From assembly GCA_963718585.1 (NCBI GenBank), contig OY970357.1, positions 360,001 to 392,000 of the forward strand: a stretch of 32,000 nt of DNA, read 5' to 3'. Source of the DNA: Candidatus Saccharimonadota bacterium. GTDB lineage: Bacteria; Patescibacteriota; Patescibacteriia; 2-12-FULL-60-25. Each line of letters begins with the position of its first letter. Within the stretch, counting starts at the first letter, position 1. The position numbers were made by a program, and so were the translations under genes. The notes below the pieces were generated by a model, which saw nothing but the letters and a program-made list of their open reading frames with translations, was not told where the DNA came from and did no database searches. Shown piece after piece: positions 8,713 to 27,023 of this stretch.

Positions 8713-9735
8713 TTATGGAGTTGGATGCGCTTTCCAGAACGTCTTTGCGGCATTCAAGAATTCCGGGTGTCCTTTCTGAGCCATCCAGACCCACCACTCA
8801 AATCCCCAGAAGTCGATGGTGTGGAATCCCATGCGCTCTGCGAAACCGAAATTCGCCTGCATCTGTTTCAGATCCATGCTGGAAAGTTGATCCTCGATCG
8901 GCGTAGTAGGAAGATCCGTATTGCTCCATGGCTCCATCTGGAATTCGCTGACATAGACGTCTTTGACACCGAACGGACGTAAGAGGATCGCTTTTCGCTT
9001 GTAAAGATACGGCGGGACGAAGAAGTAATGGAAGTTGAAACCGCCAAGGATGGGATTGCGGACCACGCGGTACACGCTGATCCCGAGCTTATCGACAAAG
9101 ACGCCGAGGGTGACCCAGCTGGACAACTCTCCGGAATCCGTTGTTGTGATGGGGCGTGTGGAATCCAGACCATGTGCGAGTGCCGTCTCTTTGTAGATGA
9201 ACGCATAGTCCAGCGCCGGGCAGTCGCCGTAGGTGAAATGCGGTTCGTTCTCGATCTGCCATTCGCTGATCGTCGGGTCGTCACGATAACGCGTCATCAC
9301 CTTTTCGATGTATCGAAGCGTCTGTTGCTCCTGTTGATCGCGTGGAAGCTTTTTCCACCAATCCGGTTCCCAGCACTCGGGCCAGCGCGGGAGTTTTTCC
9401 CCGATCGCGAGGACGACCGTGCCGCCACGCTGTTTGATCTGCGCGATCTCATTGTCGAGCGCGGAAAAATCCCATTGATCCTGCGTGGGTTCCAGCTCTG
9501 ACCAATACGCGGGGAGGCGAAAGCGACGGATCCCGATATCATCGAGGGCGATCCGGAGGGTCTCGTTCGGGTCGAGACCGAGACTTTGGGCGTACGGGCG
9601 GCTGAATGTGATGCCGTAGGTGACGTCCGTCGTCGTGGTCGGCCAGCCGACGAACAGGAATGCGCCGATACAGACGAGTAACGCCGTCCCCAGGGCGAGG
9701 AGGAATTTGATCGTCATCTCGACCTGACGTTTCAT
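8713..9735 (-). CDS. Membrane-anchored clan GH-A (GH42/GH5-like) glycoside hydrolase
   Basis: Start moved to ATG 9735 (MKRQVEMTIKF...), 1 nt after the upstream stop. Motifs: YWSELEPTQDQWDFSALD (GH42-like N-terminal block), QIENEP (acid/base NEP) and YVSEFQ (candidate nucleophile Glu). Confidence 0.55.
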   Translation of the reverse strand: MKRQVEMTIKFLLALGTALLVCIGAFLFVGWPTTTTDVTYGITFSRPYAQSLGLDPNETLRIALDDIGIRRFRLPAYWSELEPTQDQWDFSALDNEIAQIKQRGGTVVLAIGEKLPRWPECWEPDWWKKLPRDQQEQQTLRYIEKVMTRYRDDPTISEWQIENEPHFTYGDCPALDYAFIYKETALAHGLDSTRPITTTDSGELSSWVTLGVFVDKLGISVYRVVRNPILGGFNFHYFFVPPYLYKRKAILLRPFGVKDVYVSEFQMEPWSNTDLPTTPIEDQLSSMDLKQMQANFGFAERMGFHTIDFWGFEWWVWMAQKGHPEFLNAAKTFWKAHPTP

Positions 9736-9736
9736 A

Positions 9737-10660
9737 TCAGACGACAAATGCGAGCCCTGCGGCCGTGATGCAGAGGGCGACGATCTTCACGGCGAGGACG
9801 CTGGGCGTCAGACGTTCACCTAAGAGTTTAGGTGCCCGTTTATGCAGGACGAAAGCGATGACGACGAGGAAGGCATATTGCAGGGCTTGGAGCGCATTGA
9901 CGAGCGAGACGCTGCCGAGCGCGGTCGCCCATTGGACGAAGAGGAATCCGGTCGCGCCGAGACTTTGACCGAGGAGGGCGATGAGCGCGGCGGCTTTGCC
10001 GGGATGTTTTTCCTTTGAATGCGGTTTATGCCGAATGATATGTAAAACGATGAGCGCTTCACGGCCCGCCTGTCGATCCAAGAGCAGGAGTGCGGCGGCC
10101 GTTGTCACGGCCATGATGCGCGTCGTGATGAAACCGCTTAAGAATCCGACGTCGTTATAGACGAGTTTTACGGCCACGCTCGAGAACGCGAAAAAGAATC
10201 CGGCCGTGATCGCGAGCAGGATGACCTTGGGTTTGAGTCTCCCCTTCCCTCCTCCGGCGGAAAGGAGGACCGTCGCGATGATCAAAAGCACGAAACCGAT
10301 GAGCTGACGTTGCGTCAACCGTTCTCCAAGGAAGAGATACGTCCCGACGAGCGTGAGGATCGGGATGAGCGATCCGACGACCGGTACGACGCGGGTGGCC
10401 TCGCCGCGCGACATGGCGGCGAAAAAGGACCAAAGCGCGAAGATGAAGGTCGTTCCGCTCAACAGCGCCGCGACCGCGATCCATCCGTGCGGCCAGATCT
10501 TCACGAACGGGAGTGCGACGATGACGACGGTCGACAAGAGGCCGACCATGCCGGCGTATGTCGCACTTCGTGTGAACGCCTCACGAAGCAGGATCTTGTC
10601 GATCGTGAATGCGAAGCTGTTACACAATTGTCCGATGACGACGAAGATGAGCCAGGTCAT
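9737..10660 (-). CDS. EamA/DMT-family transporter
   Basis: About 10 predicted TM helices in two EamA-like halves. Start moved to ATG 10660 (MTWLIFVVIGQL...), which overlaps the upstream stop (ATGA 10657-10660). The track's 35-aa extension is Arg/Gly-rich. Confidence 0.7.
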   Translation of the reverse strand: MTWLIFVVIGQLCNSFAFTIDKILLREAFTRSATYAGMVGLLSTVVIVALPFVKIWPHGWIAVAALLSGTTFIFALWSFFAAMSRGEATRVVPVVGSLIPILTLVGTYLFLGERLTQRQLIGFVLLIIATVLLSAGGGKGRLKPKVILLAITAGFFFAFSSVAVKLVYNDVGFLSGFITTRIMAVTTAAALLLLDRQAGREALIVLHIIRHKPHSKEKHPGKAAALIALLGQSLGATGFLFVQWATALGSVSLVNALQALQYAFLVVIAFVLHKRAPKLLGERLTPSVLAVKIVALCITAAGLAFVV

Positions 10661-12006
10661 ACATCGACCGTCTGTCCGAGGCGCGGGACATCCGCCTGGA
10701 CGCCGAGTTCCCGATGCAGGCGTGTTGCCAAAGCGGCGGAAGAATTCTCTTCCCCATGTGTGCAATAGATCTGTCCGGGGAGATGTTCTGCGGAGGAGAC
10801 CCAGCGTATGAGTTGGTCCTGGTCCGCATGCGCACTGTAGGCACCGATCGAGACCACACGCGCGCGAACGATGACATTTTGACTGAGGACGTTGACGTGT
10901 TTTTTCCCTGAATAGAGATCATGCCCAAGGGTTCCGTGCGCCTGATAGCCGATGATGAGCAACGTGTTGCGACGATCGCTCAAGTAGCGGACGAGATGGT
11001 GTTGGATCCGTCCCCCGTTCATCATTCCGCTCCCCGCGATGATCACCTTCGGCTTCGGTGCGGCGTTGATGCTCTTGGAGTCGTCCCGCGTCAGGGTCTT
11101 ATGCAGCCCCGGGAAATCAAAGAGGTCGTCCCCGTGCATCACCTGCTCCAATGCATGACGGTTGTAATATTGCGGGTACTCGGCGAAGACCTCAGATGCG
11201 CGGATCGCCATCGGACTATCGAGATAGATGTCGGCTTGCGGTACGCGTTTGTGCTCTACGAGATCGTTCAGTTCGTAGAGGAGAAGCTGGGTCCGCTCGA
11301 TCGCGAAAGCCGGGATCATCAAGACTCCGTTCTTCTTCAGCGTCGTGGTCATCACATCCCGAAGGATCTTGTTCCGTGCATTCACCTGCTCGTGGATACG
11401 GTCGCCATACGTCGACTCCATGACCAGGACGTCCTGTTCCGCGAGCTGGGCGGTCGGTCGGAGGATGGGGTCCGTCGGATTGCCCAGATCACCGCTGAAT
11501 GCCGCCCGTGCACCACCCCGCTCTTCGATCTCGACGAATGCACTGCCCAGGATGTGCCCTGCGTCGCGAAATCGGAATGTCAGTGAACCGATCCGGACCT
11601 TGCGGGAGTAATCGACGATCGTAAAATATTTGACGGCCTTGTCGACATCCTTCTCCCCGTACAGCATAGGGCGATAGTTGCGGCGTTCGTCTTCCTCCAT
11701 GATGTTCTCCGCGTCATCCAAGACGATCTTCGCGAGTTTGGCGGTCGGAGGGGTCAGGTAGATCTTCCCCGTGAATCCTTCGCGGATGAGTTTGGGGAGG
11801 CGCCCGACATGATCCAGATGCGCGTGCGTCACGACGACGGCATCGATGTCTTTGGGGTCGAAGTCGAAGTCACGGTAGTTCTTGGTATCTGCGAGCGCTG
11901 TGCCCTGATACATACCGCAATCGACGAGGATGCGGCGGTCGCCTGTTTCCACGAGATAGCAGGAGCCGGTGACCTCCCGCGTCGCGCCGAGGAACGTTAT
12001 TTTCAT
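10657..12006 (-). CDS. MBL-fold beta-CASP RNA-metabolising hydrolase (CPSF73/RNase J-like)
   Basis: Start moved to ATG 12006 (MKITFLGATREVTGSCYLVE). Has the VVVTHAHLDHVGRLP (HxHxDH) motif and a beta-CASP-length C-terminal region. Confidence 0.85.
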   Translation of the reverse strand: MKITFLGATREVTGSCYLVETGDRRILVDCGMYQGTALADTKNYRDFDFDPKDIDAVVVTHAHLDHVGRLPKLIREGFTGKIYLTPPTAKLAKIVLDDAENIMEEDERRNYRPMLYGEKDVDKAVKYFTIVDYSRKVRIGSLTFRFRDAGHILGSAFVEIEERGGARAAFSGDLGNPTDPILRPTAQLAEQDVLVMESTYGDRIHEQVNARNKILRDVMTTTLKKNGVLMIPAFAIERTQLLLYELNDLVEHKRVPQADIYLDSPMAIRASEVFAEYPQYYNRHALEQVMHGDDLFDFPGLHKTLTRDDSKSINAAPKPKVIIAGSGMMNGGRIQHHLVRYLSDRRNTLLIIGYQAHGTLGHDLYSGKKHVNVLSQNVIVRARVVSIGAYSAHADQDQLIRWVSSAEHLPGQIYCTHGEENSSAALATRLHRELGVQADVPRLGQTVDV

Positions 12007-13812: not shown

Positions 13813-14988
13813 ATGGCACAAAAACGCATCCTGGTCGTCGGGGCTGGTTTCGCCGGTGTTCTCGCCGCACGACGGATGGCAAAGACGCTTCGTTCACAGG
13901 CAAAGGTCACGCTCATCAACGCGAAGGATCATTTTCTTTTTGCCCCGCGCCTCATCGATCTGCTCGAGGATCCGGATACGAAGGTCCCATATCGGGCGGA
14001 TCTCGCCTCTATCGCCAAACGAGATGGTTTCACCTTCCTCCAAGCGACCGTCACTTCCGTCAAGCGTGATCGACGGATCGTGACCATCAAGGATGGAGAC
14101 GGGAAAGAGAAGGATCTCCCTTATGATCATGCGGTCATCTGTCCGGGTGCGCGGACGAACTACTATCACATCGATGGCGCGGAGGAGAATAGTTTCGATC
14201 TGAAAGATCTGGACTCCATCAAAAAGATCCACGCGCGCGTGCAGGAACTCATCACGGATTCCAAAGCGACGAAATCGGATACGACGTGTCGGAGCATGCT
14301 CACGTTCGTGGTGGTCGGCGGCGGTGCCTCCGGGATCGAGGCCGCCTTTGCCCTCAAGAATTATTGCGAGAAGCTGATCGAAGAGTCGGCCCCTGAATGT
14401 CAGAAATTCCTCTCCTTTGTCGTCGCGCAGGCGGCGCCGCAATTGTTGCCGGGATTCCCGGATTCGGTCGTTGATGGGGCGGTATCAGAGATCACGCGCC
14501 ATGGGGTCAGTGTCATGATCGGGGAGCCTGTGACCAAGGTCGAGAACGGATCATTGACCACGGCGCGGGGCGGGATGCTTCCGGCGGGTCTGATCCTCTG
14601 GTGCGCGGGTCTCCGTCCGGTTCCGATCACCTTCGTACCCGAGACCGCGCATGACCATGGTGGATTCCTGGTCACGGACCGCAATCTCGCGATCGACGAA
14701 CGGACGTTCGCGGCAGGCGATGCGATCATGTTCCGGCATGAGCAGGTGGTCGCCCCGAAGAACGGGCAGACCGCGGAAATGATGGGGATGGCCGTTGCGG
14801 ACAACGTCATCCGGTCGATCCGCGGGCAAAGCCTCAAGCCGTTCCATTACTGGTCGAAAGGGACGATCCTGACGCTTGGGCACACGGGGTACATCGATCT
14901 CCCCTACTTCATCATCAAAACGAAACTCGCGATCTGGTTGCGCGACCGGTTCTACCGCCGCGTTTTCCGTAAGGTCACGGGTCTTTGA
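13813..14988 (+). CDS. ndh: Type II NADH dehydrogenase-like FAD/NAD(P)-binding oxidoreductase (NDH-2 family)
   Basis: RILVVGAGFAGV dinucleotide fold at the N-terminus, a second VVVGGGASGIE fold, FAAGD near the C-terminus, 391 aa. Confidence 0.75.
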   Translation: MAQKRILVVGAGFAGVLAARRMAKTLRSQAKVTLINAKDHFLFAPRLIDLLEDPDTKVPYRADLASIAKRDGFTFLQATVTSVKRDRRIVTIKDGDGKEKDLPYDHAVICPGARTNYYHIDGAEENSFDLKDLDSIKKIHARVQELITDSKATKSDTTCRSMLTFVVVGGGASGIEAAFALKNYCEKLIEESAPECQKFLSFVVAQAAPQLLPGFPDSVVDGAVSEITRHGVSVMIGEPVTKVENGSLTTARGGMLPAGLILWCAGLRPVPITFVPETAHDHGGFLVTDRNLAIDERTFAAGDAIMFRHEQVVAPKNGQTAEMMGMAVADNVIRSIRGQSLKPFHYWSKGTILTLGHTGYIDLPYFIIKTKLAIWLRDRFYRRVFRKVTGL

Positions 14989-15017
14989 TCTAAAAAACTC
15001 ACTCACCATTTTCTATT

Positions 15018-15476
15018 ATGTGGTTCCTCAAAATGAACATGTCCACCTGTACGAACGGGTGCGAACGACACTGCAGGTATGCGGATTGGGGCCTGCTCTT
15101 CATCCGTGTTGCCGCCGGCCTGATCTTCCTTGTCCACGGGTACGGCAAGCTCTTCGGTAACATGCCCGGCATGGATGGATTCACGCACATGGTCGCCGGG
15201 CTCGGATTCCCGATCCCCGCGTTCTTCGCCTGGGTCATCGCCATCGCCGAATTCTTCGGCGGGATCGCGTTGATCCTCGGTTTTTTGATGCGGTATTTCG
15301 CGCCGATCCTCCTGGTCGACATGTTCGTCGCATTCACGATGGTCTTCAAGGCGGACATCCTCCACGGCGGTCAGGAATTCATGCTCTTCTGGACGGTCCT
15401 CGCTCTCATGTGTGCCGGACCGGGAAGGTTCGCACTCGGAATGCGCCGACGGTCAGACGGATCGAAAGACGCATGA
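15018..15476 (+). CDS. DoxX-family membrane protein
   Basis: GLLFIRVAAGLIFLVHGYGKLFG and EFFGGIALILGF blocks are typical of DoxX. It lies 29 nt after ndh with no terminator between. The true start may be Met6 or Met8. Confidence 0.75.
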   Translation: MWFLKMNMSTCTNGCERHCRYADWGLLFIRVAAGLIFLVHGYGKLFGNMPGMDGFTHMVAGLGFPIPAFFAWVIAIAEFFGGIALILGFLMRYFAPILLVDMFVAFTMVFKADILHGGQEFMLFWTVLALMCAGPGRFALGMRRRSDGSKDA

Positions 15477-15505
15477 AAAAAGACCCCTTTGCGGGGGTCT
15501 TTTTT
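15476..15505. terminator. Bidirectional intrinsic terminator (doxX / FecR-like gene)
   Basis: AAAAAA-AGACCCC (15481-15487)-loop-GGGGTCT (15494-15500)-TTTTT. Confidence 0.8.
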
Positions 15506-16613
15506 AGAATGAAAGGCTTGATGTCGCGGCGTTCCCATCCGCGCTGGCGCCGACGGTCAGACGGATCGAGCCGGAGTGCTCATGTGTTCCGTCATTCCAT
15601 CGGGCGATGACCGTGACCGGGCCCTCCCCGACCGCAGTCGCACTCCCCTGTTCCACGGTCAGGATCGATGGGTCAGAGGATTGCCAGATCGCCTGATCGG
15701 TCACCTCTCTGCTCGAGGCCTGTCCGTTCTGGTCTTGAAAGATGGCCAAGGCTGTGAAGTTGATGGTCTGGCCCGTTACGAGTGCTGGACCGGTATCAGG
15801 CGGAATGATCTGCACGGCCATATATCCGTCATGTGTCGCATTGGGATCATCGAGCGTATAGGGTCCTGCTTCATCTCCCACCGAATCAAGCGTCGACATG
15901 TCACCGAGCGCGCGACGGACGGCACGGACCCGTTGGACGAAATCTTGGTCGGCGCGCAGCTGTGCGCGGATCCACGGGTCGTTCCGTGTCTCGTCCGGCG
16001 TGGGAAAGATGGTCTGGTCAAATTCCGGGGGCGGCGAGGTGGTGTCGAGACTCATCGTGAATCCGGTCTCCAGCGTCCCCGTCGCCGTTCCTCCGATGTT
16101 CAAGCTGCCATCAAACTGGTCGATCGTGAGATTGCCGGCATCCGCCCGGACGTGGAACGCCGTTCCGCGGACATTCGCGACCACACCGTTATTCCGCACG
16201 TCAAAAGAGGATCTTGTATCAAGAAGCTTCAAAACACGTGCCCAGAGTCGTCCGGCCGTCAGTTCCAGATGGACGGATTGCACAGCTTTGTCCGCGGATG
16301 CGTCATCGATCTTGAGCGTGCTGTCCGGTGCAAGGGCAACACGATCGCTGTCATAGAATTCGATCGACGCTTCGCCGTCTGCGCCGGTGATGATCGTCTC
16401 TCCCGCGGCCAAGGTCTGCCCTTCGGCCGCCGCGGTACTGGACCCGTCCGTTTCTTGGATCGTAACGGATCCCGAAAGAGACCCGATGGCGACGGCCAAG
16501 TCCGGTGATGAAGAATGGACCGCTCCGGGAGCGGCCGAACGATGACTCAACGTCACGTATGCGAGAGCCGCGATCGCGAGAGCCGCGATCGCGATGATGA
16601 TGTTCCGTTTCAT
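15504..16613 (-). CDS. Signal-anchored FecR-domain protein with C-terminal Big_2 (Ig-like) domain
   Basis: Start moved to ATG 16613 (MKRNIIIAIAALAIAALAYV). FecR-like block: GQTLAAGETIITGADGEASIEFYDSDRVALAPDSTLKI...LELTAGRLWARV...VRGTAFHV. Big_2-like block: WQSSDPSILTVEQGSATAVGEGPVTVIA. Confidence 0.65.
   Translation of the reverse strand: MKRNIIIAIAALAIAALAYVTLSHRSAAPGAVHSSSPDLAVAIGSLSGSVTIQETDGSSTAAAEGQTLAAGETIITGADGEASIEFYDSDRVALAPDSTLKIDDASADKAVQSVHLELTAGRLWARVLKLLDTRSSFDVRNNGVVANVRGTAFHVRADAGNLTIDQFDGSLNIGGTATGTLETGFTMSLDTTSPPPEFDQTIFPTPDETRNDPWIRAQLRADQDFVQRVRAVRRALGDMSTLDSVGDEAGPYTLDDPNATHDGYMAVQIIPPDTGPALVTGQTINFTALAIFQDQNGQASSREVTDQAIWQSSDPSILTVEQGSATAVGEGPVTVIARWNDGTHEHSGSIRLTVGASADGNAATSSLSF
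16561..16590 (-). repeat. Exact 15-bp tandem duplication inside the coding sequence
   Basis: GCGAGAGCCGCGATC occurs twice in tandem and encodes the repeated IAALA of the membrane anchor. Confidence 0.9.
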
Positions 16614-16615
16614 GT

Positions 16616-17107
16616 TCAGTGGACGACGACGGTCCCGTGCATGTCCGGGTGGATCCCGCAGCTGTAGGGGTACGTTCCCACGGCGTTGAACACGTGCGAA
16701 TAGCTGTGCCCAGGTGTGATGGTCCCGGAATCCCACAGCAAGGCTCCATCCGAATGCGTGGTATGGGGCACCGAATCATCATTCACCCAAACGACTGTAT
16801 CCCCGGCATTGACGGCGATGACCTGCGGGGAGAAGGCGTGGCCCACGATACGGACCGTGGCGGTTTGATGTGCGGGCGCCGGTGCGGGTTTGGGCGCGGG
16901 TTTTGCGACCGGTTTCGGGGTCGGTGCCGGTGCAGGCACTGGAGCGGGGGTCGCGCTTGTGGAGGTCGGTGTCGAGGTGGTCGCCTGCGCTCCCACTTCT
17001 GGATTCGTGGGTGTTTGACCTGTTCCTGCGGGAAGATCTTGCCAGGTGCTGAAGCATCCGGCGCCAAAAAGGGAGAGGACGGCGAACGCCGCGAGGATCC
17101 GTTTCAT
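16616..17107 (-). CDS. Type-1 (blue) copper cupredoxin lipoprotein, amicyanin/plastocyanin-like
   Basis: Start moved to ATG 17107 (MKRILAAFAVLSLFGAGC). A Pro/Ala/Thr linker is followed by VPHTTH and YSCGIHPDMHG (Cys-x2-His-x2-Met ligand set). Its stop lies 2 nt before the FecR-like ATG. Confidence 0.8.
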   Translation of the reverse strand: MKRILAAFAVLSLFGAGCFSTWQDLPAGTGQTPTNPEVGAQATTSTPTSTSATPAPVPAPAPTPKPVAKPAPKPAPAPAHQTATVRIVGHAFSPQVIAVNAGDTVVWVNDDSVPHTTHSDGALLWDSGTITPGHSYSHVFNAVGTYPYSCGIHPDMHGTVVVH

Positions 17108-19444: not shown

Positions 19445-19813
19445 ATGCAAAAGCTCTTTCAAGACCTTCGGGTCGGAATGAAGTTTCGTTTTCGGATCCA
19501 TCCCAACGGCCTCACGTTCCTGTTCCGCGATGATCTCGATGCGCATCTCTTGGAGATCCACGACGTGGTCGGGTCGGATATCATCGCAAATGTCGCGGCG
19601 GTACGCGAGATCGCGAGATTCCTCGACTTGGTCATCGCCGGGACGGTCGGCCTCTGCCTGCAGTTCGCGGCGGCAGAGGATGAGGACGGCGCGGTCCTGT
19701 TCGGACTCACCCGTTTCATTCGGGAACGGGTCCTGATCCCGTGGGATCCGCCTCGTGCGGCATTCGATCTGGTCTATCTGGTCGAGATGACGCGCCGCTC
19801 GGTGGATCCATGA
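19445..19813 (+). CDS. Orphan protein, paralog A (122 aa)
   Basis: MQKLFQDLRVGMKFRFRIHP...LFRDD...AAEDEDGAV. Homologous to the next ORF. Confidence 0.6.
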   Translation: MQKLFQDLRVGMKFRFRIHPNGLTFLFRDDLDAHLLEIHDVVGSDIIANVAAVREIARFLDLVIAGTVGLCLQFAAAEDEDGAVLFGLTRFIRERVLIPWDPPRAAFDLVYLVEMTRRSVDP

Positions 19814-20163
19814 TCCAGCTCTTTCAAGACTTGAGACCCGGTACGCGCTTCCGGGTGCGGATCCGACCTGACGATTCGGTCATGCTGTTTCGTGACGACG
19901 CTGAGGATGTATGGATGGCGTTGACGGACACGGTCGGGACGGAGATGCCGGAGGCTCTCCTGCGAAGTTACGAGCTCATGACGCTCTTCTTCGATCGTGT
20001 CCTTGCGGCGACCGCCGGATGGCGCGTCCGATTCTCTTCTGCTGAGGATGAGGACGGGACGGTCCAGTTGGATGTCGCGCGGTATCTCCGCGGCGAATCC
20101 CCTGTCATGGATCCGCTGCCCGAAGATGCGATCGACCTTCTCTTCGTCATCGCAAAGCCCTGA
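19810..20163 (+). CDS. Orphan protein, paralog B (117 aa)
   Basis: Start moved to ATG 19810, overlapping the paralog A stop (ATGA 19810-19813). MIQLFQDLRPGTRFRVRIRP...LFRDD...SAEDEDGTV. Confidence 0.6.
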   Translation: MIQLFQDLRPGTRFRVRIRPDDSVMLFRDDAEDVWMALTDTVGTEMPEALLRSYELMTLFFDRVLAATAGWRVRFSSAEDEDGTVQLDVARYLRGESPVMDPLPEDAIDLLFVIAKP

Positions 20164-22073: not shown

Positions 22074-22417
22074 TGTTGGCAGTACTCGGTGTACCCGCCT
22101 TGAAGGAATTTTACGTTGTCGTAGCCCATCTGTTCGAGGGTCTCGGTCGCGAGGGCGGCTCGGCTTCCATGCGCGCAACAGACGATGATGAGCGCGTGTT
22201 TGTCCGGCATCGCTTCTTCCGCCTTGAACTCCAAGAATCCGCGCGGGATATGGAGTGCGCCTTCGACGTGCCCTGCGTTGAATTCATCTTCCTCGCGTAC
22301 GTCTAAAAGAATATGCGGCTTTGCGTCTGCGCGGAGTTGCTTGTATGCATCGCAGGTGATGGACGGCTCTTCGGTCGATGCTTTGTCGGCTAATTCTTTA
22401 CCGGTGTGATCGGTCAT
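22070..22417 (-). CDS. Single-domain rhodanese sulfurtransferase
   Basis: Start moved to ATG 22417, with an ATGA overlap to the upstream gene. Motifs: LLDVREEDEFNAGHVEGALHIP and active-site loop CCAHGSRA. Confidence 0.8.
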   Translation of the reverse strand: MTDHTGKELADKASTEEPSITCDAYKQLRADAKPHILLDVREEDEFNAGHVEGALHIPRGFLEFKAEEAMPDKHALIIVCCAHGSRAALATETLEQMGYDNVKFLQGGYTEYCQQ

Positions 22418-23061
22418 GTGTGTTTGGGATGACGTTTTGTATAAAGGAAGTACGAATAGACCACGGCGATGATCGCAGGAAGGAAGGTTCCGATCAGGAC
22501 AAACCAGATCAACGCGAGTGGGGCGAGAAGGCCGAAGAGGATGAAGATCCCTCCAGCGGCGAACAATTTGCCGCCAAGACGGTGCGTCTCTTTCCAAACC
22601 GTCTCATCTTCAAGGGTCCACGGGGTTCGGATCCCGAAGAACCAGCTAGGTGGCAAACGGCCCAGGATCATTCCGAAGGCGATATAGAGGGCGGCGATGC
22701 CTGGCATGATCCAGTATGTCGTATCCGCGTGCCAACCAAGGTTGTAGGCCAGGGTCAATGCGTGGACGTACGCAAGGAAAAGTAAGAGGTCGATGACGAG
22801 CCATTCGAGCGGGCCGTGGTCTTTTTGCTGTTTGATCCGCGGATCGATCCGGATGAGTAGAGCGAACAGTAAGACGAATCCCGTCATGATGAGCGGAACG
22901 AGCGCCACGCCCCACAGTCGTGGGAGGACCCCATTGGGTCGTCCGTTGACATCCCAGTGTGACGCGATGAGCGCGGGGAGATGCGGATACGCCAAAACAG
23001 ATGCGATGGCAGCCGCAACGATGATACACAAGGCAAAGATGCGTCGAGATCTCATATGCAT
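22414..23061 (-). CDS. DUF1648/SdpI-family membrane protein
   Basis: ASHWDVNGRPNGVLPR (DUF1648-like) followed by multiple TM helices. Start is ATG 23061 or 23055; the track's earlier start is unsupported. Confidence 0.65.
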   Translation of the reverse strand: MHMRSRRIFALCIIVAAAIASVLAYPHLPALIASHWDVNGRPNGVLPRLWGVALVPLIMTGFVLLFALLIRIDPRIKQQKDHGPLEWLVIDLLLFLAYVHALTLAYNLGWHADTTYWIMPGIAALYIAFGMILGRLPPSWFFGIRTPWTLEDETVWKETHRLGGKLFAAGGIFILFGLLAPLALIWFVLIGTFLPAIIAVVYSYFLYTKRHPKHT

Positions 23062-23318
23062 ATAGCATACCCCCTTTGTACGCTTCTGCACTATTGCGAG
23101 GAAAAGGCCCCGGATATCGTAGGCCATTACCCTTTGTCTGAATTCGTCTATGGCGGAGCATGGATCCTTTTTCGACGTGCATCCAATCTCCCATGAGCGT
23201 TCCGCCCGTGTTGCCTGGCCCTTGGTCTTCGGGTTTTTGGGTAATTTTGCTTATTTGAGCGAAACGCTGAACCAAATGGTCCTGTTCAGACGTATCTTTT
23301 TTTGTTATCTTTCCGGTC

Positions 23319-23849
23319 ATGGAATCTCCATCAAAGACCGGCAAAAAGCCGGCTCATCTCTATATCCCGAACGAACTCAAGACGCTTCGCGGATTGGGCC
23401 TCCTCGTTCTCCTCTCCCTGTTCATCGTCGATTCGGTGGTTTGGGTGTCTTTTCGGTGGGTCGAGGAGAATGAGATCCATCAACAGCTGATCACGACCGC
23501 ACAGCATATCGAGCAGGGAGACATCCATCTGCGGGCCGCAACATCGGTCGAGGATGTGACGCGATCCGCTGTGGTCGATCTTCCGAATGGTGTCGTCGCC
23601 ATCCAACGGACACCGTCGCAGGTCCATGATGATCAAGGAGACTTCCGCGAATCGGATCTCCTTGGACAGCGCTATGTCGTCTACAGTGGTTCCTCGAATT
23701 ACCTCATCGCCAAATCTGACGAATCGGTCGACGAAGAGCTTACGAAGCTCGCTGTCGTCCTCGCCGTGGTCTTTTTCGCGCAGTGTTTGATGCTTGGTAG
23801 TTGGTGGGCGTATCTCCGTAGTCGCGTTCGCGCCCTTTTTGACGTATGA
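23319..23849 (+). CDS. Two-TM membrane protein with about a 115-aa extracytoplasmic loop (histidine-kinase sensor-like, no kinase domains)
   Basis: TM1 GLGLLVLLSLFIVDSVVWV and TM2 LAVVLAVVFFAQCLMLGSWWAY. It ends 10 residues after TM2. First gene of the flavinylation operon. Confidence 0.6.
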   Translation: MESPSKTGKKPAHLYIPNELKTLRGLGLLVLLSLFIVDSVVWVSFRWVEENEIHQQLITTAQHIEQGDIHLRAATSVEDVTRSAVVDLPNGVVAIQRTPSQVHDDQGDFRESDLLGQRYVVYSGSSNYLIAKSDESVDEELTKLAVVLAVVFFAQCLMLGSWWAYLRSRVRALFDV

Positions 23850-24400
23850 ACTTGAAACGCTTCCTCCAAAACTTCCTCATATTCGCGTTCACGGGAACGT
23901 TCTTCATCTTATTGACCGTCGGGGTCCTGCGTATCCGGACGCAGAACATCCAAGATGCGATCACGCCAAAGACATCGCCGTCGCCAACGCCTTCCTCTGC
24001 ATCGCCGTCAGCGCCCGCTCCTTCGTCGTTTCAGCCTGTGACGGAGACGCCGGCACAGGTTGCTGCGCCGAGCCAGCCACAGACCAATGCGCCCGCACCT
24101 CCTGCCCCTGCTCCTGCACCCACACCCGCCAAGACCGCGTCCCGAACCGTGACGGGTGACACATATACCATTCCTTGGGGAGACGTGACCGCGGCGATCA
24201 CGGTCCAGAACGGCAAGATCACGGACGTGACCATGCCAGACGTCCCCTACTCGCCACCGAGCCAGTATGCCAAAGACGTCCTCATCAACCAGGCGATCGC
24301 AGCCGGCTCGGCGAACATCCAGGGTGTTTCTGGCGCCACATATACGAGTCTCGCGTTCAAGCGGTCGCTCGAGAGTGCCATTGCAAAGGCAGGGATCTGA
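23846..24400 (+). CDS. Signal-anchored FMN_bind-domain protein (ApbE flavinylation target)
   Basis: ATGA overlap with the upstream gene. N-terminal anchor, Pro/Ala/Ser linker, and a C-terminal domain with IQGVSGATYTS ([ST]GA[ST] flavinylation motif). Confidence 0.75.
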   Translation: MNLKRFLQNFLIFAFTGTFFILLTVGVLRIRTQNIQDAITPKTSPSPTPSSASPSAPAPSSFQPVTETPAQVAAPSQPQTNAPAPPAPAPAPTPAKTASRTVTGDTYTIPWGDVTAAITVQNGKITDVTMPDVPYSPPSQYAKDVLINQAIAAGSANIQGVSGATYTSLAFKRSLESAIAKAGI

Positions 24401-24404
24401 TCAT

Positions 24405-25301
24405 ATGGAGAATGTCCGACACCATGTCTTTGAATGCATGGGCATTTCCATTCACGCGACCCTGACGGGGATCCGCGATGGAGTGGATGAGGATCTTCAT
24501 GCGCTGGAGCACGTGTTCCATACATGGGATGCGCGTTTCACCCGTTTTCGTACGGATTCCGAGTTGATGCGGTTGAATGCAGCTGCGGGCGAACGAACCG
24601 TGGTCTCCCCGGAATTATTCGATGTCATCGAAAAATGCGTCCTGCTTGCTCGCGAGACGGACGGCGTCTTTGATCCAAGCGTCGGCGGACGATTGGCCGC
24701 TCATGGGTACGGCTTGCCGGTCGGTCACGTCCTTCCGATCCCTGCACCGGATTTCCGGTCCATCCGTCTAGATCGCGCGGCTCGTGCGATCGCCTGTGCG
24801 CCCGGCCAGGTCCTTGAACCCGCGTCCATCGTGAAGGGCATGGCGATCGACGCGGCCGGACGCGAGATCACACATGCGGATGGGTGGATGATCAATGCGG
24901 GTGGCGACATCCTGACGCGCGGCGCGTACGCCGGTGCGTCGTGGCGTGTCGGGATCCAATCCCCGACCGATCCGAATGCGATCATCGCCGCCGTCGATGT
25001 CCAGGATGGTGCGGTCGCGACCTCCGGCATCTATGCGGTCCGCGACGCGGACGGATGGAATCATCTCGTGGATATGACGACCGGGGAAAGCGTTTCCGAT
25101 CTCGTCAGCGTCACGGTACTCGCGAATGACGCAGAGACCGCAGATACCCACGCGACCATCGCCTGTCTGCTCGGTCGTGGACGCGCCGCGGCGTACCTCG
25201 AACGCCATGCGCTCCCCTATCTCCTCGTAGAAGCGGACGGACGTCTCACAAAAGACCGTGCATTCGCTGCGCGAGAAATCGAACTCTCCCCAATCCTATG
25301 A
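24405..25301 (+). CDS. apbE: FAD:protein FMN transferase ApbE
   Basis: Start moved to ATG 24405 (MENVRHHVFECMG). Blocks DGVFDPSVGG, IVKGMAIDAAG, MINAGGDI and VATSGIY. No N-terminal signal or lipobox. Confidence 0.85.
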   Translation: MENVRHHVFECMGISIHATLTGIRDGVDEDLHALEHVFHTWDARFTRFRTDSELMRLNAAAGERTVVSPELFDVIEKCVLLARETDGVFDPSVGGRLAAHGYGLPVGHVLPIPAPDFRSIRLDRAARAIACAPGQVLEPASIVKGMAIDAAGREITHADGWMINAGGDILTRGAYAGASWRVGIQSPTDPNAIIAAVDVQDGAVATSGIYAVRDADGWNHLVDMTTGESVSDLVSVTVLANDAETADTHATIACLLGRGRAAAYLERHALPYLLVEADGRLTKDRAFAAREIELSPIL

Positions 25302-25531
25302 CCCTCATCCTCGGCAATGACCTCGTGTGGTGGACCGGCATGATCTCCGGCCTCTTCTTCGGACTGTTGATGATCACGGTGGTCGTCAAGCAGTACAACT
25401 GGAAGATCTTCATGAAATACCAGGTCCCGCTCACCCCGCTCCACCACTGGTTCGGCTGGATCGCGTGTGGCGGTCTGGCGATCCATGTCCTGTTGGCGAT
25501 CCTGCAGTTCAATTTCCATGTCTATTTTTGA
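25298..25531 (+). CDS. 77-aa two-helix membrane protein with a His pair
   Basis: ATGA overlap with apbE. Helix 2 reads PLHHWFGWIACGGLAIHVLLAIL. It overlaps the next gene by 14 nt. Confidence 0.55.
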   Translation: MTLILGNDLVWWTGMISGLFFGLLMITVVVKQYNWKIFMKYQVPLTPLHHWFGWIACGGLAIHVLLAILQFNFHVYF

Positions 25532-26237
25532 TCAATGGCAGGAACGGCTTGAGGCGCAGAATGCCGAGATGACCATCGTCCGATCCACACGGATCGGGTC
25601 GCATGTGCAGGATGTCACGCTTCGGCTTCCCCGGGGCATGAAATGGGAATTCGCGATCGGGTCGTACATCCAACCCATGATCGGTGGATGCATCCCGCGG
25701 TGTTATTCGGTCGCGGATTATGATGCGACGTCCTGTCGCCTCATCGTGAGCTTCAGCCGCCATGGTGTCGGATCACGTTTCTTCGCGGAAGCACCTGTCG
25801 GCACGAAGGTCCGCGTGTATGGACCGTTCGATGATTTTCCTTTTGTCTACGATACGCATCGACCGAAGATGTTCTTTGCGACCGGGACCGGCGTCGCCCC
25901 GTTCCTTCTCATGGTGCAAGAGGCGATCAAAGAGCATGAGCCCTGTATGCTCCTCCTTGGTTCGCCGGAAGAACATGATCTTTGTTTCAATGATGAATTT
26001 TCGCAACTTGCGACGGTGCACGAGCACTTCCACTACGTCCCGGTCTTGTCTCATCCAGATGACTCGTGGAAAGGCGAACATGGATACATCACGACCGTCG
26101 CATCAAAGCATCCGGATCTCCTCCGGAAGAGCGACATCTACGTGTGCGGTGTTCCGCCCATGGTCGAAGGCGTCCAACGGATGATCGATCAGTACGCGGT
26201 TCCAAAGGATCAGTTATTCATCCAAAAATTCGGCTGA
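25518..26237 (+). CDS. FNR-family FAD/NAD(P)H oxidoreductase
   Basis: Start moved to ATG 25518 (MSIFDQWQERL). RCYSVA (RxYS FAD motif), FFATGTGVAPF (NAD(P)H motif) and a YVCGVPPM C-terminal block. Confidence 0.8.
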   Translation: MSIFDQWQERLEAQNAEMTIVRSTRIGSHVQDVTLRLPRGMKWEFAIGSYIQPMIGGCIPRCYSVADYDATSCRLIVSFSRHGVGSRFFAEAPVGTKVRVYGPFDDFPFVYDTHRPKMFFATGTGVAPFLLMVQEAIKEHEPCMLLLGSPEEHDLCFNDEFSQLATVHEHFHYVPVLSHPDDSWKGEHGYITTVASKHPDLLRKSDIYVCGVPPMVEGVQRMIDQYAVPKDQLFIQKFG

Positions 26238-26243
26238 CGCGGT

Positions 26244-27023
26244 TCAAACGTCCGGGAGGATCATCCATTCCGGTTTGCCGACGAGTTTCCCATCCGCGTG
26301 CGTGAACAAGCGGTATTTGCCGATCCCCGTGGTCGATCCGGCGTTGTAGACGCGGAGATCGCGCTCGCCATGCGTAATGTGTTCGAGCGGCCGATGCCGA
26401 TGTCCGTGGAGGACCACGTCGCAGCGTCCCAGTAACGTGCCGAGCAGCGCGGGTCCGGCCTTCAGCTCCTCTGCGAATGGAAGTCGGAGCAATGTCGAGA
26501 TCCGTTCCGAGAGATAGTCTTCTTCCTGTGGATAGAGATGGTGATGCAATCCGACGACGACGAGCTCGCCGTCGCGAGCGTCTGCCGCCAACGTGGCGAT
26601 CTTTTCGTTCATCCCGCTCGACAGGCGACCTTGACCGGGAATGACGAACCGATTGTATGTCGCAGTCGTGTCGATCCGGATGAGGTACACGCCATCGAAG
26701 CGCGTGACTTCGACAGGTCCGTCCATCAAGCGGTTCCCGATGTCGTCCGTGCAGCGATCGTGATTGCCGGGGAGCACAGTGAGGCGGTCCGCATCGATGA
26801 GTGGTGCGAAGATCCGTCGGAATTCGGCGTACTCCGCTTCCTTCCCGTGGTCCGTGATATCGCCCGTGACGATGACAAGGTCCGTCCCATTAGAACCGAG
26901 ATGCTGCGCGAGCGCTTCGGAGACACTCGTCGTCCGTTCATCCTGTCCGATGTGGAGATCAGAAAGATGCGCGATGGTCCGTCGCGTTGAAGAAGATCGG
27001 TTATCTGATCGGTCTTCGGACAT
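26244..27023 (-). CDS. Calcineurin-like metallophosphoesterase
   Basis: Start moved to ATG 27023 (MSEDRSDN). Motifs: IAHLSDLHIG, VIVTGDITDHG, LPGNHD, GLHHH and LHGHRH. Confidence 0.8.
   Translation of the reverse strand: MSEDRSDNRSSSTRRTIAHLSDLHIGQDERTTSVSEALAQHLGSNGTDLVIVTGDITDHGKEAEYAEFRRIFAPLIDADRLTVLPGNHDRCTDDIGNRLMDGPVEVTRFDGVYLIRIDTTATYNRFVIPGQGRLSSGMNEKIATLAADARDGELVVVGLHHHLYPQEEDYLSERISTLLRLPFAEELKAGPALLGTLLGRCDVVLHGHRHRPLEHITHGERDLRVYNAGSTTGIGKYRLFTHADGKLVGKPEWMILPDV

Follow-up and report, generated by a model that had tools for sequence, protein, structure and literature searches.

Within the 32,000-nt stretch of a Candidatus Saccharimonadota genome analyzed here (contig OY970357.1, positions 360,001 to 392,000), which we call the window and whose numbering is used for all positions, five genes on the + strand at 23319-26237 (g1 to g5) might encode a minimal electron conduit specific to the Candidate Phyla Radiation (CPR, Patescibacteria). 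In this module, electrons would pass from NAD(P)H to the FAD of a soluble reductase (g5), to two b haems held by a homodimer of a 77-residue membrane protein (g4), to a covalently bound FMN (g2) and finally to an external acceptor. We regard this chain as the most likely reading and give it an even chance of being correct. The initial annotation had outlined a path from NAD(P)H via an FNR-type reductase and the membrane mini-protein to an exported flavoprotein. Our analysis supports this outline and the view of the genes as one functional set, whereas haem binding and the position of the flavoprotein are unproven.

Layout and conservation of the gene set

The + strand block and all of the gene junctions described earlier are borne out by reading the DNA from 23130 to 26330. 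The stop codon of g1 and the start codon of g2 share an ATGA (23846-23849), as do the stop codon of g3 and the start codon of g4 (25298-25301). The g2 stop codon TGA (24398-24400) is followed by tcat and the g3 ATG at 24405, leaving a gap of 4 nt, and the g5 ATG at 25518 precedes the g4 stop codon at 25529-25531, resulting in an overlap of 14 nt. The product lengths of 176, 184, 298, 77, and 239 amino acids (g1 to g5) agree between the list of open reading frames (ORFs) and public gene calls on the same DNA. Upstream, the unit borders on a divergent SdpI-like gene (22414-23127, - strand), and downstream on a convergent metallophosphoesterase gene (ending at 26244, - strand); hence 23319-26237 is a discrete five-gene operon-like block. 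The 191-nt intergenic region between the SdpI-like gene and g1 (23128-23318) is presumed from its position alone to hold the operon promoter. Neither a sigma-70-type consensus on the + strand of this region nor a terminator at the block ends was matched, which says little for such an organism.

Judged by the conserved homologues that each product has elsewhere, all five are real genes and not chance ORFs. Public annotations list the cluster genes everywhere as hypothetical proteins. The earlier descriptions of the products of g2, g3, and g5 are backed by the Pfam scan, and four of the five descriptions can be counted as supported; g1 and g4 match no Pfam family above threshold. A single frameshifted or fused gene comprising g4 and g5 is ruled out, as the two are separate genes in every relative and the 14-nt overlap is often kept.

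Conservation was assessed in 19 loci, one genome per GTDB species, which were collected by a pattern scan with the g4 alignment and then searched by tblastn with the five window proteins. Relatives of g4 occur in metagenome-assembled genomes of Candidatus Paceibacterota, Yonath-, Nomura-, Magasanik-, Doudna-, and Saccharibacteria as well as Minisyncoccia. According to tblastn, all five genes are found together in 14 of the 19 loci (Paceibacterota, Yonath-, Nomura-, Magasanik-, and Saccharibacteria). L022 represents a fifteenth complete locus, as its g1 was missed by tblastn and found by ORF reading. Among the incomplete loci, L021 has a gap of the size of g1 and ends before g3, L006 is devoid of g1, L010 is devoid of g1 to g3, and L024 ends at a contig edge. 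The gene for g5 immediately follows g4 in 19/19 loci. The common order is g4-g5-g1-g2(x1-4)-g3, and the window order g1-g2-g3-g4-g5 is a circular permutation thereof. Thus, the linkage survived rearrangement, and the blocks g4-g5 and g1-g2-g3 each stayed intact through the permutation. The initial annotation had made conservation of the five-gene order a check on its proposal: the set is conserved across several CPR classes, but the gene order itself is not.

The closest relative, L032 (4933-6946; g4 82% identical), is arranged as g1-g2-g4-g5 and carries an SGAS site. An SdpI-like gene is adjacent in L032, as in the window. Partial sets are found elsewhere: g4 and g5 occur without g2 and g3 in L010 and L025, the L025 copy consisting of a tandem form of g4 (P0059) and an FNR, and g2, g3, and g4 occur without an adjacent g5 in L028 and L029. 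As the only partner found with both the inside and the flavoprotein component, g4 looks like the system's hub, which fits a membrane-crossing role. In a low-GC relative (L028 3163-6258 and L029 439-3534), genes for a response regulator and a histidine kinase directly precede FMN_bind-ApbE-g4 and share its strand, which hints at regulated expression. No conserved flanking genes accompany the cluster across the relatives.

The 77-residue membrane protein and its reductase

The g4 gene (25298-25531, + strand) encodes a 77-residue hairpin with two transmembrane (TM) helices, which we propose as the haem-binding subunit. The family comprises 24 homologue clusters with 65-82% identity, all 68-90 residues long. 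A HMMER search of 1.84 billion representatives with the g4 profile yielded only six clusters, among them the tandem four-TM protein P0059, and no longer fusion of g4 and g5, the tandem g4 being the only such extension. By sequence the g4 family is narrow, because the profile search added only a handful of more distant members. Residues G6, N7, D8, W11, W12, G14, G18, T27, K31, Q32, N34, F38, Q42, H49, H50, W51, W54, G58, and H63 are invariant or near-invariant in the alignment, and residues on both membrane faces are conserved. TM1 bears the motif G14xxxG18, and G14, G18, and T27 of this helix are invariant. On TM2, His49 and His50 (encoded at 25442-25447) are placed at the cytoplasmic end, and His63 is encoded at 25484-25486. 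When the distant members are added, the invariant set still includes His49 and His63, which are 14 residues apart on TM2. It is a hallmark of di-haem cytochromes b that a single TM helix carries two histidines at a distance of 13-14 residues, which serve as ligands of different haems.

The N-terminal tail of g4 contains no Lys or Arg, the loop between the helices contains two to three and no acidic residues, and the C-terminal tail again contains none. From this charge bias, the K-rich loop is expected in the cytoplasm and each terminus outside. Accordingly, His49 would be located at the inner end of TM2, with His63 approximately 20 Å further out.

A Pfam scan of the 24 members yielded sub-threshold matches exclusively: Ferric_reduct was matched by 24/24 members, Ni_hydr_CYTB by 12/24, and DUF4405 by 10/24, while any other family was matched by at most four of the 24. 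The alignments with DUF4405 are close to full length, covering 2-64 of the 66 model positions. Moreover, P0059 (151 residues) is a tandem duplication of the g4 hairpin with four TM helices and the His pair in both halves, and it additionally matches the eukaryotic Cytochrom_B561 family in the Pfam scan. P0059 would represent a natural covalent "dimer," as expected if the working unit is a four-helix bundle of two hairpins. In L025 (6001-7135), the P0059 gene is followed by the FNR gene with an 8-nt overlap; glycosyltransferase and ABC-transporter genes surround it, and neither FMN_bind nor ApbE is encoded nearby. The initial annotation had placed the membrane-crossing step on the 77-residue protein, and this assignment is supported: with its invariant His pair, the weak matches to di-haem families, and the tandem four-TM version, g4 behaves like a TM redox hub. 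It is probably haem-binding, and our best reading is that of a homodimeric DUF4405/FezC-like mini-cytochrome, which would link the cytoplasmic FNR to the flavinylated protein.

This FNR is encoded by g5 (25518-26237, + strand). According to Pfam, motifs, and PDB matches, g5 is a soluble FNR-type FAD/NAD(P)H reductase of 239 residues without a TM segment. The NAD_binding_1 model (PF00175) is matched with 2.5e-22 (80 bits vs. a cut-off of 22), and FAD_binding_6 scores just below its cut-off (20.7 vs. 21.1 bits). The motifs R61-C-Y-S64 (25698-25709) and G123-T-G-V-A-P128 (25884-25901) are both invariant in the alignment. The domain models together with the RxYS and GxGxxP motifs identify g5 as a member of the FNR type, with FAD_binding_6 being marginal. 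NCBIfam models of the Fre, NqrF, and BenC types are matched below cut-off, and the nearest PDB matches are the FAD/NAD domains of NqrF and BenC. The FNR forms a clade of its own with 46-59% identity, and the next matches are generic FNRs with about 30% identity. The concern that it might be a stray reductase of a known soluble pathway, such as an oxygenase, is not borne out, given its own clade and its invariable position beside g4.

An alternative in-frame ATG of g5 is present at 25569. The 17 residues that precede it (from 25518, MSxF..LEA) form an N-terminal extension, coded partly inside the g4/g5 overlap, which is found clade-wide and is absent from outgroup FNRs. Because this extension is conserved across the clade, the overlapping start at 25518 is favored over 25569. 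We regard the extension as a candidate docking element.

The flavoprotein, its transferase, and the accessory protein

The product of g2 (23846-24400, + strand) is a TM-anchored FMN_bind protein of 184 residues, as identified by the Pfam model and a PDB match. Its N-terminal TM anchor (residues 9-27, 23870-23926) is followed by a Pro/Ser/Thr/Ala-rich linker and the FMN_bind domain (residues 111-179, 24176-24382), which scores above the cut-off of PF04205 (1.5e-8, 35.6 vs. 22 bits). The flavinylation motif S162-G-A-T165 is encoded at 24329-24340 with Thr165 as the putative acceptor residue, and IQGVSGAT is the prevailing form of the motif among g2 relatives. The best PDB match of g2 is 8P2A (E=8e-13), the SaFMN3-D2 domain, which is experimentally flavinylated and derives from an externally anchored multi-FMN protein of Streptomyces (PMC10339131). 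A twin-arginine translocation (Tat) signal in g2 was rejected, as the N-terminal tails read KR or KK, not RR-x-FLK.

In some relatives, namely L014, L015, L016, L018, L020, L022, and L023 (at about 9500-11500 in each), two TM-anchored genes replace the single g2. These paired genes of Yonath- and Nomurabacteria encode one and one to three FMN_bind domains, respectively, and thus up to four in total. In their products, the linkers are long and PT-rich, and the strongly acidic C-terminal tails consist of PxVPRKYR followed by runs of Asp/Glu (e.g., DDDDEWDD) and could bind metals or surfaces. In L023 (10069-12237), a single ORF of 722 residues runs from the last FMN_bind domain into ApbE across an ambiguous base (X); rather than a real fusion, this is probably an artefact of assembly.

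The FMN would be attached by g3 (24405-25301, + strand), an ApbE-family FAD:protein FMN transferase of 298 residues that was identified by Pfam and PDB matches. The ApbE model (PF02424) is matched with 3.3e-45 (155.1 bits vs. a cut-off of 25.6) over positions 1-258 of 266, and ApbE/FMN transferases in the PDB match g3 with E values down to 7e-21. Both g3 and its orthologues start directly at the ApbE core, and the in-frame sequence upstream of g3 is hydrophilic. Accordingly, g3 does not show the signal peptide or lipobox of an extracytosolic-type ApbE.

The least understood part is g1 (23319-23849, + strand), a two-TM membrane protein of 176 residues, defined by its ORF and by homologues in the same clusters. 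TM1 spans about residues 25-45 (23391-23453) and TM2 about residues 144-166 (23748-23816). The loop between them, initially given as about 115 residues, is corrected to about 98 (about residues 46-143); it is predicted to be outside and rich in β-strands and contains no conserved Cys or His. Conserved motifs of g1 are GF(Y)E, Y..Y, and KSE. Furthermore, polar residues are conserved in the middle of the membrane, i.e., His/Asn/Asp in TM1 and Glu/Gln in TM2 (in the window Asp38 and Gln154, respectively), which suggests an intramembrane contact with another subunit. The AlphaFold2 (AF2) model of g1 (pLDDT 68.6) consists of a long helix, five strands, and a helix. Foldseek found no significant match of this model in the PDB, the top matches covering about 50 residues of ATPase subunits. 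No family was matched in Pfam and NCBIfam, Pfam scans of 13 family members showed no recurring family, and a homologue search with the g1 sequence returned the protein itself only. A truncated histidine-kinase sensor was considered and dropped, as the loop of the L029 kinase has about 45 residues and shows no obvious similarity on inspection. A PepSY-like domain is likewise without support from the Pfam scans and Foldseek. We treat g1 as an accessory or scaffold subunit.

Electron route, alternatives, and known systems

In the proposed chain, two g4 hairpins would assemble into a four-helix bundle and coordinate two b haems in bis-His fashion through His49 and His63 of each TM2. One haem would be placed near each membrane face, as in DUF4405, MsrQ, and PepSY-type cytochromes and in the homodimeric FezC. 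The reductase g5 might dock on the conserved cytoplasmic loop of g4, possibly via its clade-specific N-terminal extension, and deliver electrons of NAD(P)H via FAD to the inner haem. The outer haem would then reduce the covalent FMN that ApbE has installed on Thr165 of g2, a domain tethered outside on its flexible linker. In relatives, up to three such FMN domains would be chained in one protein next to a further single-domain paralogue. From g2, electrons would reach an external acceptor, for example Fe(III), O2, or an extracytoplasmic redox protein, and g1 would contribute as a non-redox accessory or scaffold subunit. The system might serve the disposal of reducing equivalents and/or extracellular iron reduction in cells without a quinone-based chain.

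A number of observations weigh against this chain, beginning with the haems. Haem binding by g4 is what we infer, and CPR bacteria generally lack haem biosynthesis; the haem would therefore need to be scavenged. The best scores within the g4 family stay below the cut-offs of both Ferric_reduct (PF01794, 20.5 vs. 28 bits) and DUF4405 (PF14358, 18.8 vs. 26.7 bits). An alignment of the g4 family profile by hhalign with E. coli MsrQ (probability 0.2) and YodB gave nothing, and a PDB sequence search with the g4 profile returned 0 matches at E<=10. Homology of g4 to MsrQ or cytochrome b561 was thus not established by these two approaches. The AF2 model of P0059 (pLDDT 75.6) had no significant Foldseek match in the PDB, with SpNOX on top at E=1.8. 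The cluster does not encode a terminal acceptor, its neighbors are not conserved, and in L032 it is devoid of ApbE. Finally, the flavinylation motif has been described as D-x-x-[S/T]-G-A-[S/T] with a strictly conserved Asp (PMC12052999). In the window and in the aligned CPR homologues, Gln replaces this Asp (QGVSGAT; g2 residues 159-165, 24320-24340), while the more distant FMN_bind homologue of L029 keeps it (DIITGAT). In one tested target, exchange of the Asp for Ala had only minor effects.

The remaining difficulties concern the side of the membrane on which the FMN resides. A signal peptide, TM segment, or lipobox is absent in g3 and 17 ApbE orthologues, and yet a cupredoxin of this genome (MKRILAAFAVLSLFGAGC) bears a classical lipoprotein signal. 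In Klebsiella, ApbE specificity follows localization, and the signal-less, cytoplasmic enzymes flavinylate cytoplasmic targets (review PMC12052999). The flanks of the g2 anchor carry two to three Lys/Arg on each side and, being equally charged, do not fix its orientation. With both the transferase and the flanks in this state, the "exported flavoprotein" of the initial annotation is unproven. Alternatively, g2 might be oriented N-out/C-in with a cytoplasmic FMN domain that receives its flavin there from the signal-less ApbE, and electrons would pass from NAD(P)H via the FAD of g5 and the FMN of g2 to the g4 haems and an outside acceptor, possibly on the external domain of g1. We consider this order unlikely, and to the same degree the notion that the module parallels the logic of diflavin reductases (FAD to FMN to haem) in a split, membrane-bound form. 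Besides the cytosolic ApbE, it is favored by a conserved R-x-K-K cluster right after the g2 anchor, whose charge equals or exceeds that of the N-terminal tail in many homologues, and by g1 bearing the only clearly external domain. Yet, the two to three Lys/Arg make the g2 tail basic and disfavor its translocation under the positive-inside rule, and periplasmic NqrC also has basic residues after its anchor. The flanks of the L029 homologue clearly predict N-in/C-out, although the ApbE encoded there is signal-less as well. An FMN domain on the outside is also in line with the NqrC/RnfG-like layout of g2. The PT-rich linkers, the two to three FMN domains, and the acidic tails of the paralogues resemble externally anchored multi-flavinylated proteins (PMC8238504; PMC10339131), and the nearest solved domain, itself flavinylated, comes from such a protein. 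A signal-less ApbE is combined here with a presumed substrate that has the look of a membrane-anchored, linker-tethered external protein.

Two further explanations dispense with part of the chain. If no electrons crossed the membrane, g4 would be a mere anchor or dock for the FNR, its histidines would be structural or metal-binding, and g5, g2, and g3 would constitute a one-sided flavin reductase system. The cytosolic nature of ApbE by sequence, the usual lack of haem synthesis in CPR, and the absence of any haem family above threshold agree with this explanation, which we nevertheless find rather improbable: a passive anchor is hard to square with an invariant pair of TM histidines 14 residues apart and the small residues accompanying it, with recurrent weak matches to di-haem cytochrome families only, with a tandem version that keeps both His pairs, and with conservation of both g4 faces. 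It appears distinctly improbable that the cluster represents two separate, often neighboring modules, i.e., g4 and g5 as a NOX-like or ferric-reductase pair, and g1, g2, and g3 as a flavoprotein module with its own electron source. Such a division could account for g4 and g5 standing alone in L010 and L025, for g2, g3, and g4 without an adjacent g5 in L029, and for the internal order that both blocks keep under permutation. However, in the great majority of the 19 loci the blocks adjoin each other on one strand, in the window they are translationally coupled, and the g1-g3 block has no other TM redox component. In L029, g4 remains with FMN_bind and ApbE instead of the FNR, and hence g4 is tied to both blocks.

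As candidates for a conserved terminal acceptor of the proposed chain, cupredoxin, FecR, DoxX, MsrB, rhodanese, and SdpI were examined, and none of these co-occurs with the cluster in relatives. The window itself contains other redox-type genes at 13813-17107, which is unusual for a CPR genome. These encode a Pyr_redox_2 flavoprotein (13813-14988, + strand), a DoxX-family membrane protein (about 15018-15476, + strand), a FecR-domain protein (15504-16613, - strand), and the lipoprotein cupredoxin of the amicyanin/plastocyanin type (16616-17107, - strand). It is conceivable that this cupredoxin acts as the external electron acceptor. Two adjacent, overlapping, paralogous small genes at 19445-19813 and 19810-20163 (+ strand) encode proteins of 122 and 117 residues without a Pfam family, both of which start with M(Q/I)(K/Q)LFQDLR.G..FR.RI.P.

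The pairing of g4 and g5 has a counterpart in the Fre-MsrQ system, in which a soluble Fre-type FNR reportedly passes electrons from NAD(P)H to the separate membrane b-type cytochrome MsrQ. Common to both is the split into a cytochrome and an FNR of the FAD_binding_6/NAD_binding_1 class, to which g5 belongs. MsrQ is a six-TM Ferric_reduct protein with the molybdoenzyme MsrP as acceptor, and the system differs from g4/g5 in that fre is not known to be linked to msrQ and no flavinylated carrier is known to take part. This NOX-like system of E. coli (Juillan-Binard et al., 2017) is cited in a survey of flavinylation (PMC8238504). The same survey describes MsrQ-like clusters, which comprise a PF01794 protein with six TM helices, two haem sites, and usually a C-terminal PF00175 domain, together with genes for ApbE and an FMN_bind protein (Meheust et al., 2021, PMC8238504). 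With apbE, FMN_bind, a haem-type membrane protein, and a PF00175 reductase, these clusters resemble the window cluster in composition and in leading from NAD(P)H to an extracytosolic flavin. However, the MsrQ-like protein is six-TM, passes the PF01794 cut-off, usually has the NAD domain fused to its C-terminus, and is mainly actinobacterial. In the window cluster, a separate 77-residue two-TM protein below the PF01794 cut-off is combined with a separate reductase, g1, and a signal-less ApbE; of its two TM helices, one bears His, as opposed to two His-bearing helices among six in MsrQ-like proteins.

A bis-His di-haem core is common to MsrQ-like, PepSY-like, and DUF4405 proteins (Huang et al., 2024, PMC10979944). 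Haem b has been shown experimentally in DUF4405, and FezC, a small protein of ferrosomes, has been modeled to form such sites by homodimerization (PMC10979944). DUF4405/FezC proteins resemble g4 as apbE-associated membrane proteins with conserved His, and g4 aligns with nearly all 66 DUF4405 positions. In contrast, the characterized DUF4405 protein has been described with six TM helices, from Proteobacteria and Firmicutes, and as linked to flavodoxin and flavin transporters, whereas the g4 family is two-TM, CPR-restricted, FNR-paired, and below cut-off. Also described are PepSY-like proteins, some of which contain an NAD-binding domain, and, in Actinobacteria and CPR, two-subunit systems of the Nqr/Rnf-like type (PMC8238504). 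The PepSY-like/FoxB type shares with our cluster the bis-His di-haem core, the outward direction of electrons, PF00175 fusions in some members, and clustering with apbE (PMC8238504; PMC10979944), but its substrate is DUF2271 instead of FMN_bind, it is found in Gram-negative lineages, and g4 shows essentially no PepSY_TM signal (one match, E=0.33). The Nqr/Rnf-like two-subunit systems are also minimal conduits from NAD(P)H to an extracytosolic FMN_bind protein and are known from CPR (PMC8238504; PMC10979944), yet they contain an NqrB/RnfD-like (PF03116) membrane subunit fused to an NAD-binding domain. The PF03116 type is absent from all five proteins in Pfam and NCBIfam, where only the FAD/NAD part of NqrF resembles g5. 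Parts of a Listeria-type extracellular electron transfer chain (Ndh2, EetA/B, quinone synthesis) were not found in the five genes or the flanking genes by Pfam, NCBIfam, and gene calls. These scans concur with the earlier statement that the operon contains no Nqr/Rnf subunit, EetAB-type protein, or quinone component.

The initial annotation did not recognize the arrangement as described. While the overall design is published, the two-TM stand-alone cytochrome candidate, the separate FNR subunit, the partner g1, and the restriction to CPR are new within the literature searched. A literature search for such a system in Patescibacteria found nothing, and the searched portion of the supplement text of PMC8238504 does not mention Patescibacteria clusters. 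The survey itself applied a signal-peptide filter, defined systems by Pfam matches, and reported flavinylation as strikingly underrepresented in CPR (PMC8238504). The filter together with the Pfam-based definition may explain this low number.

More tentatively, and less likely than not in our view, the 77-residue homodimer holding two b haems might, together with the separate FNR, form the smallest known NAD(P)H-driven TM wire, widespread in CPR and serving as an outlet to extracellular acceptors or host surfaces, with a carrier that is flavinylated in the cytoplasm by the signal-less ApbE prior to export. The signal-less ApbE raises the question where and when membrane-anchored FMN_bind proteins receive their flavin, and cytoplasmic flavinylation before export, if true, would mature the carrier in a way that has not been described for FMN_bind proteins destined for export. 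If confirmed, a natural hairpin of 77 residues holding two haems upon dimerization would match the designed haem maquettes in minimal form and offer synthetic electron wiring a compact building block. A large share of bacterial diversity falls to the CPR/Patescibacteria, which are viewed as fermentative episymbionts without electron-transport chains. For their re-oxidation of NAD(P)H or reduction of iron, a conserved, self-contained outward conduit, if true, would offer a concrete and testable explanation.

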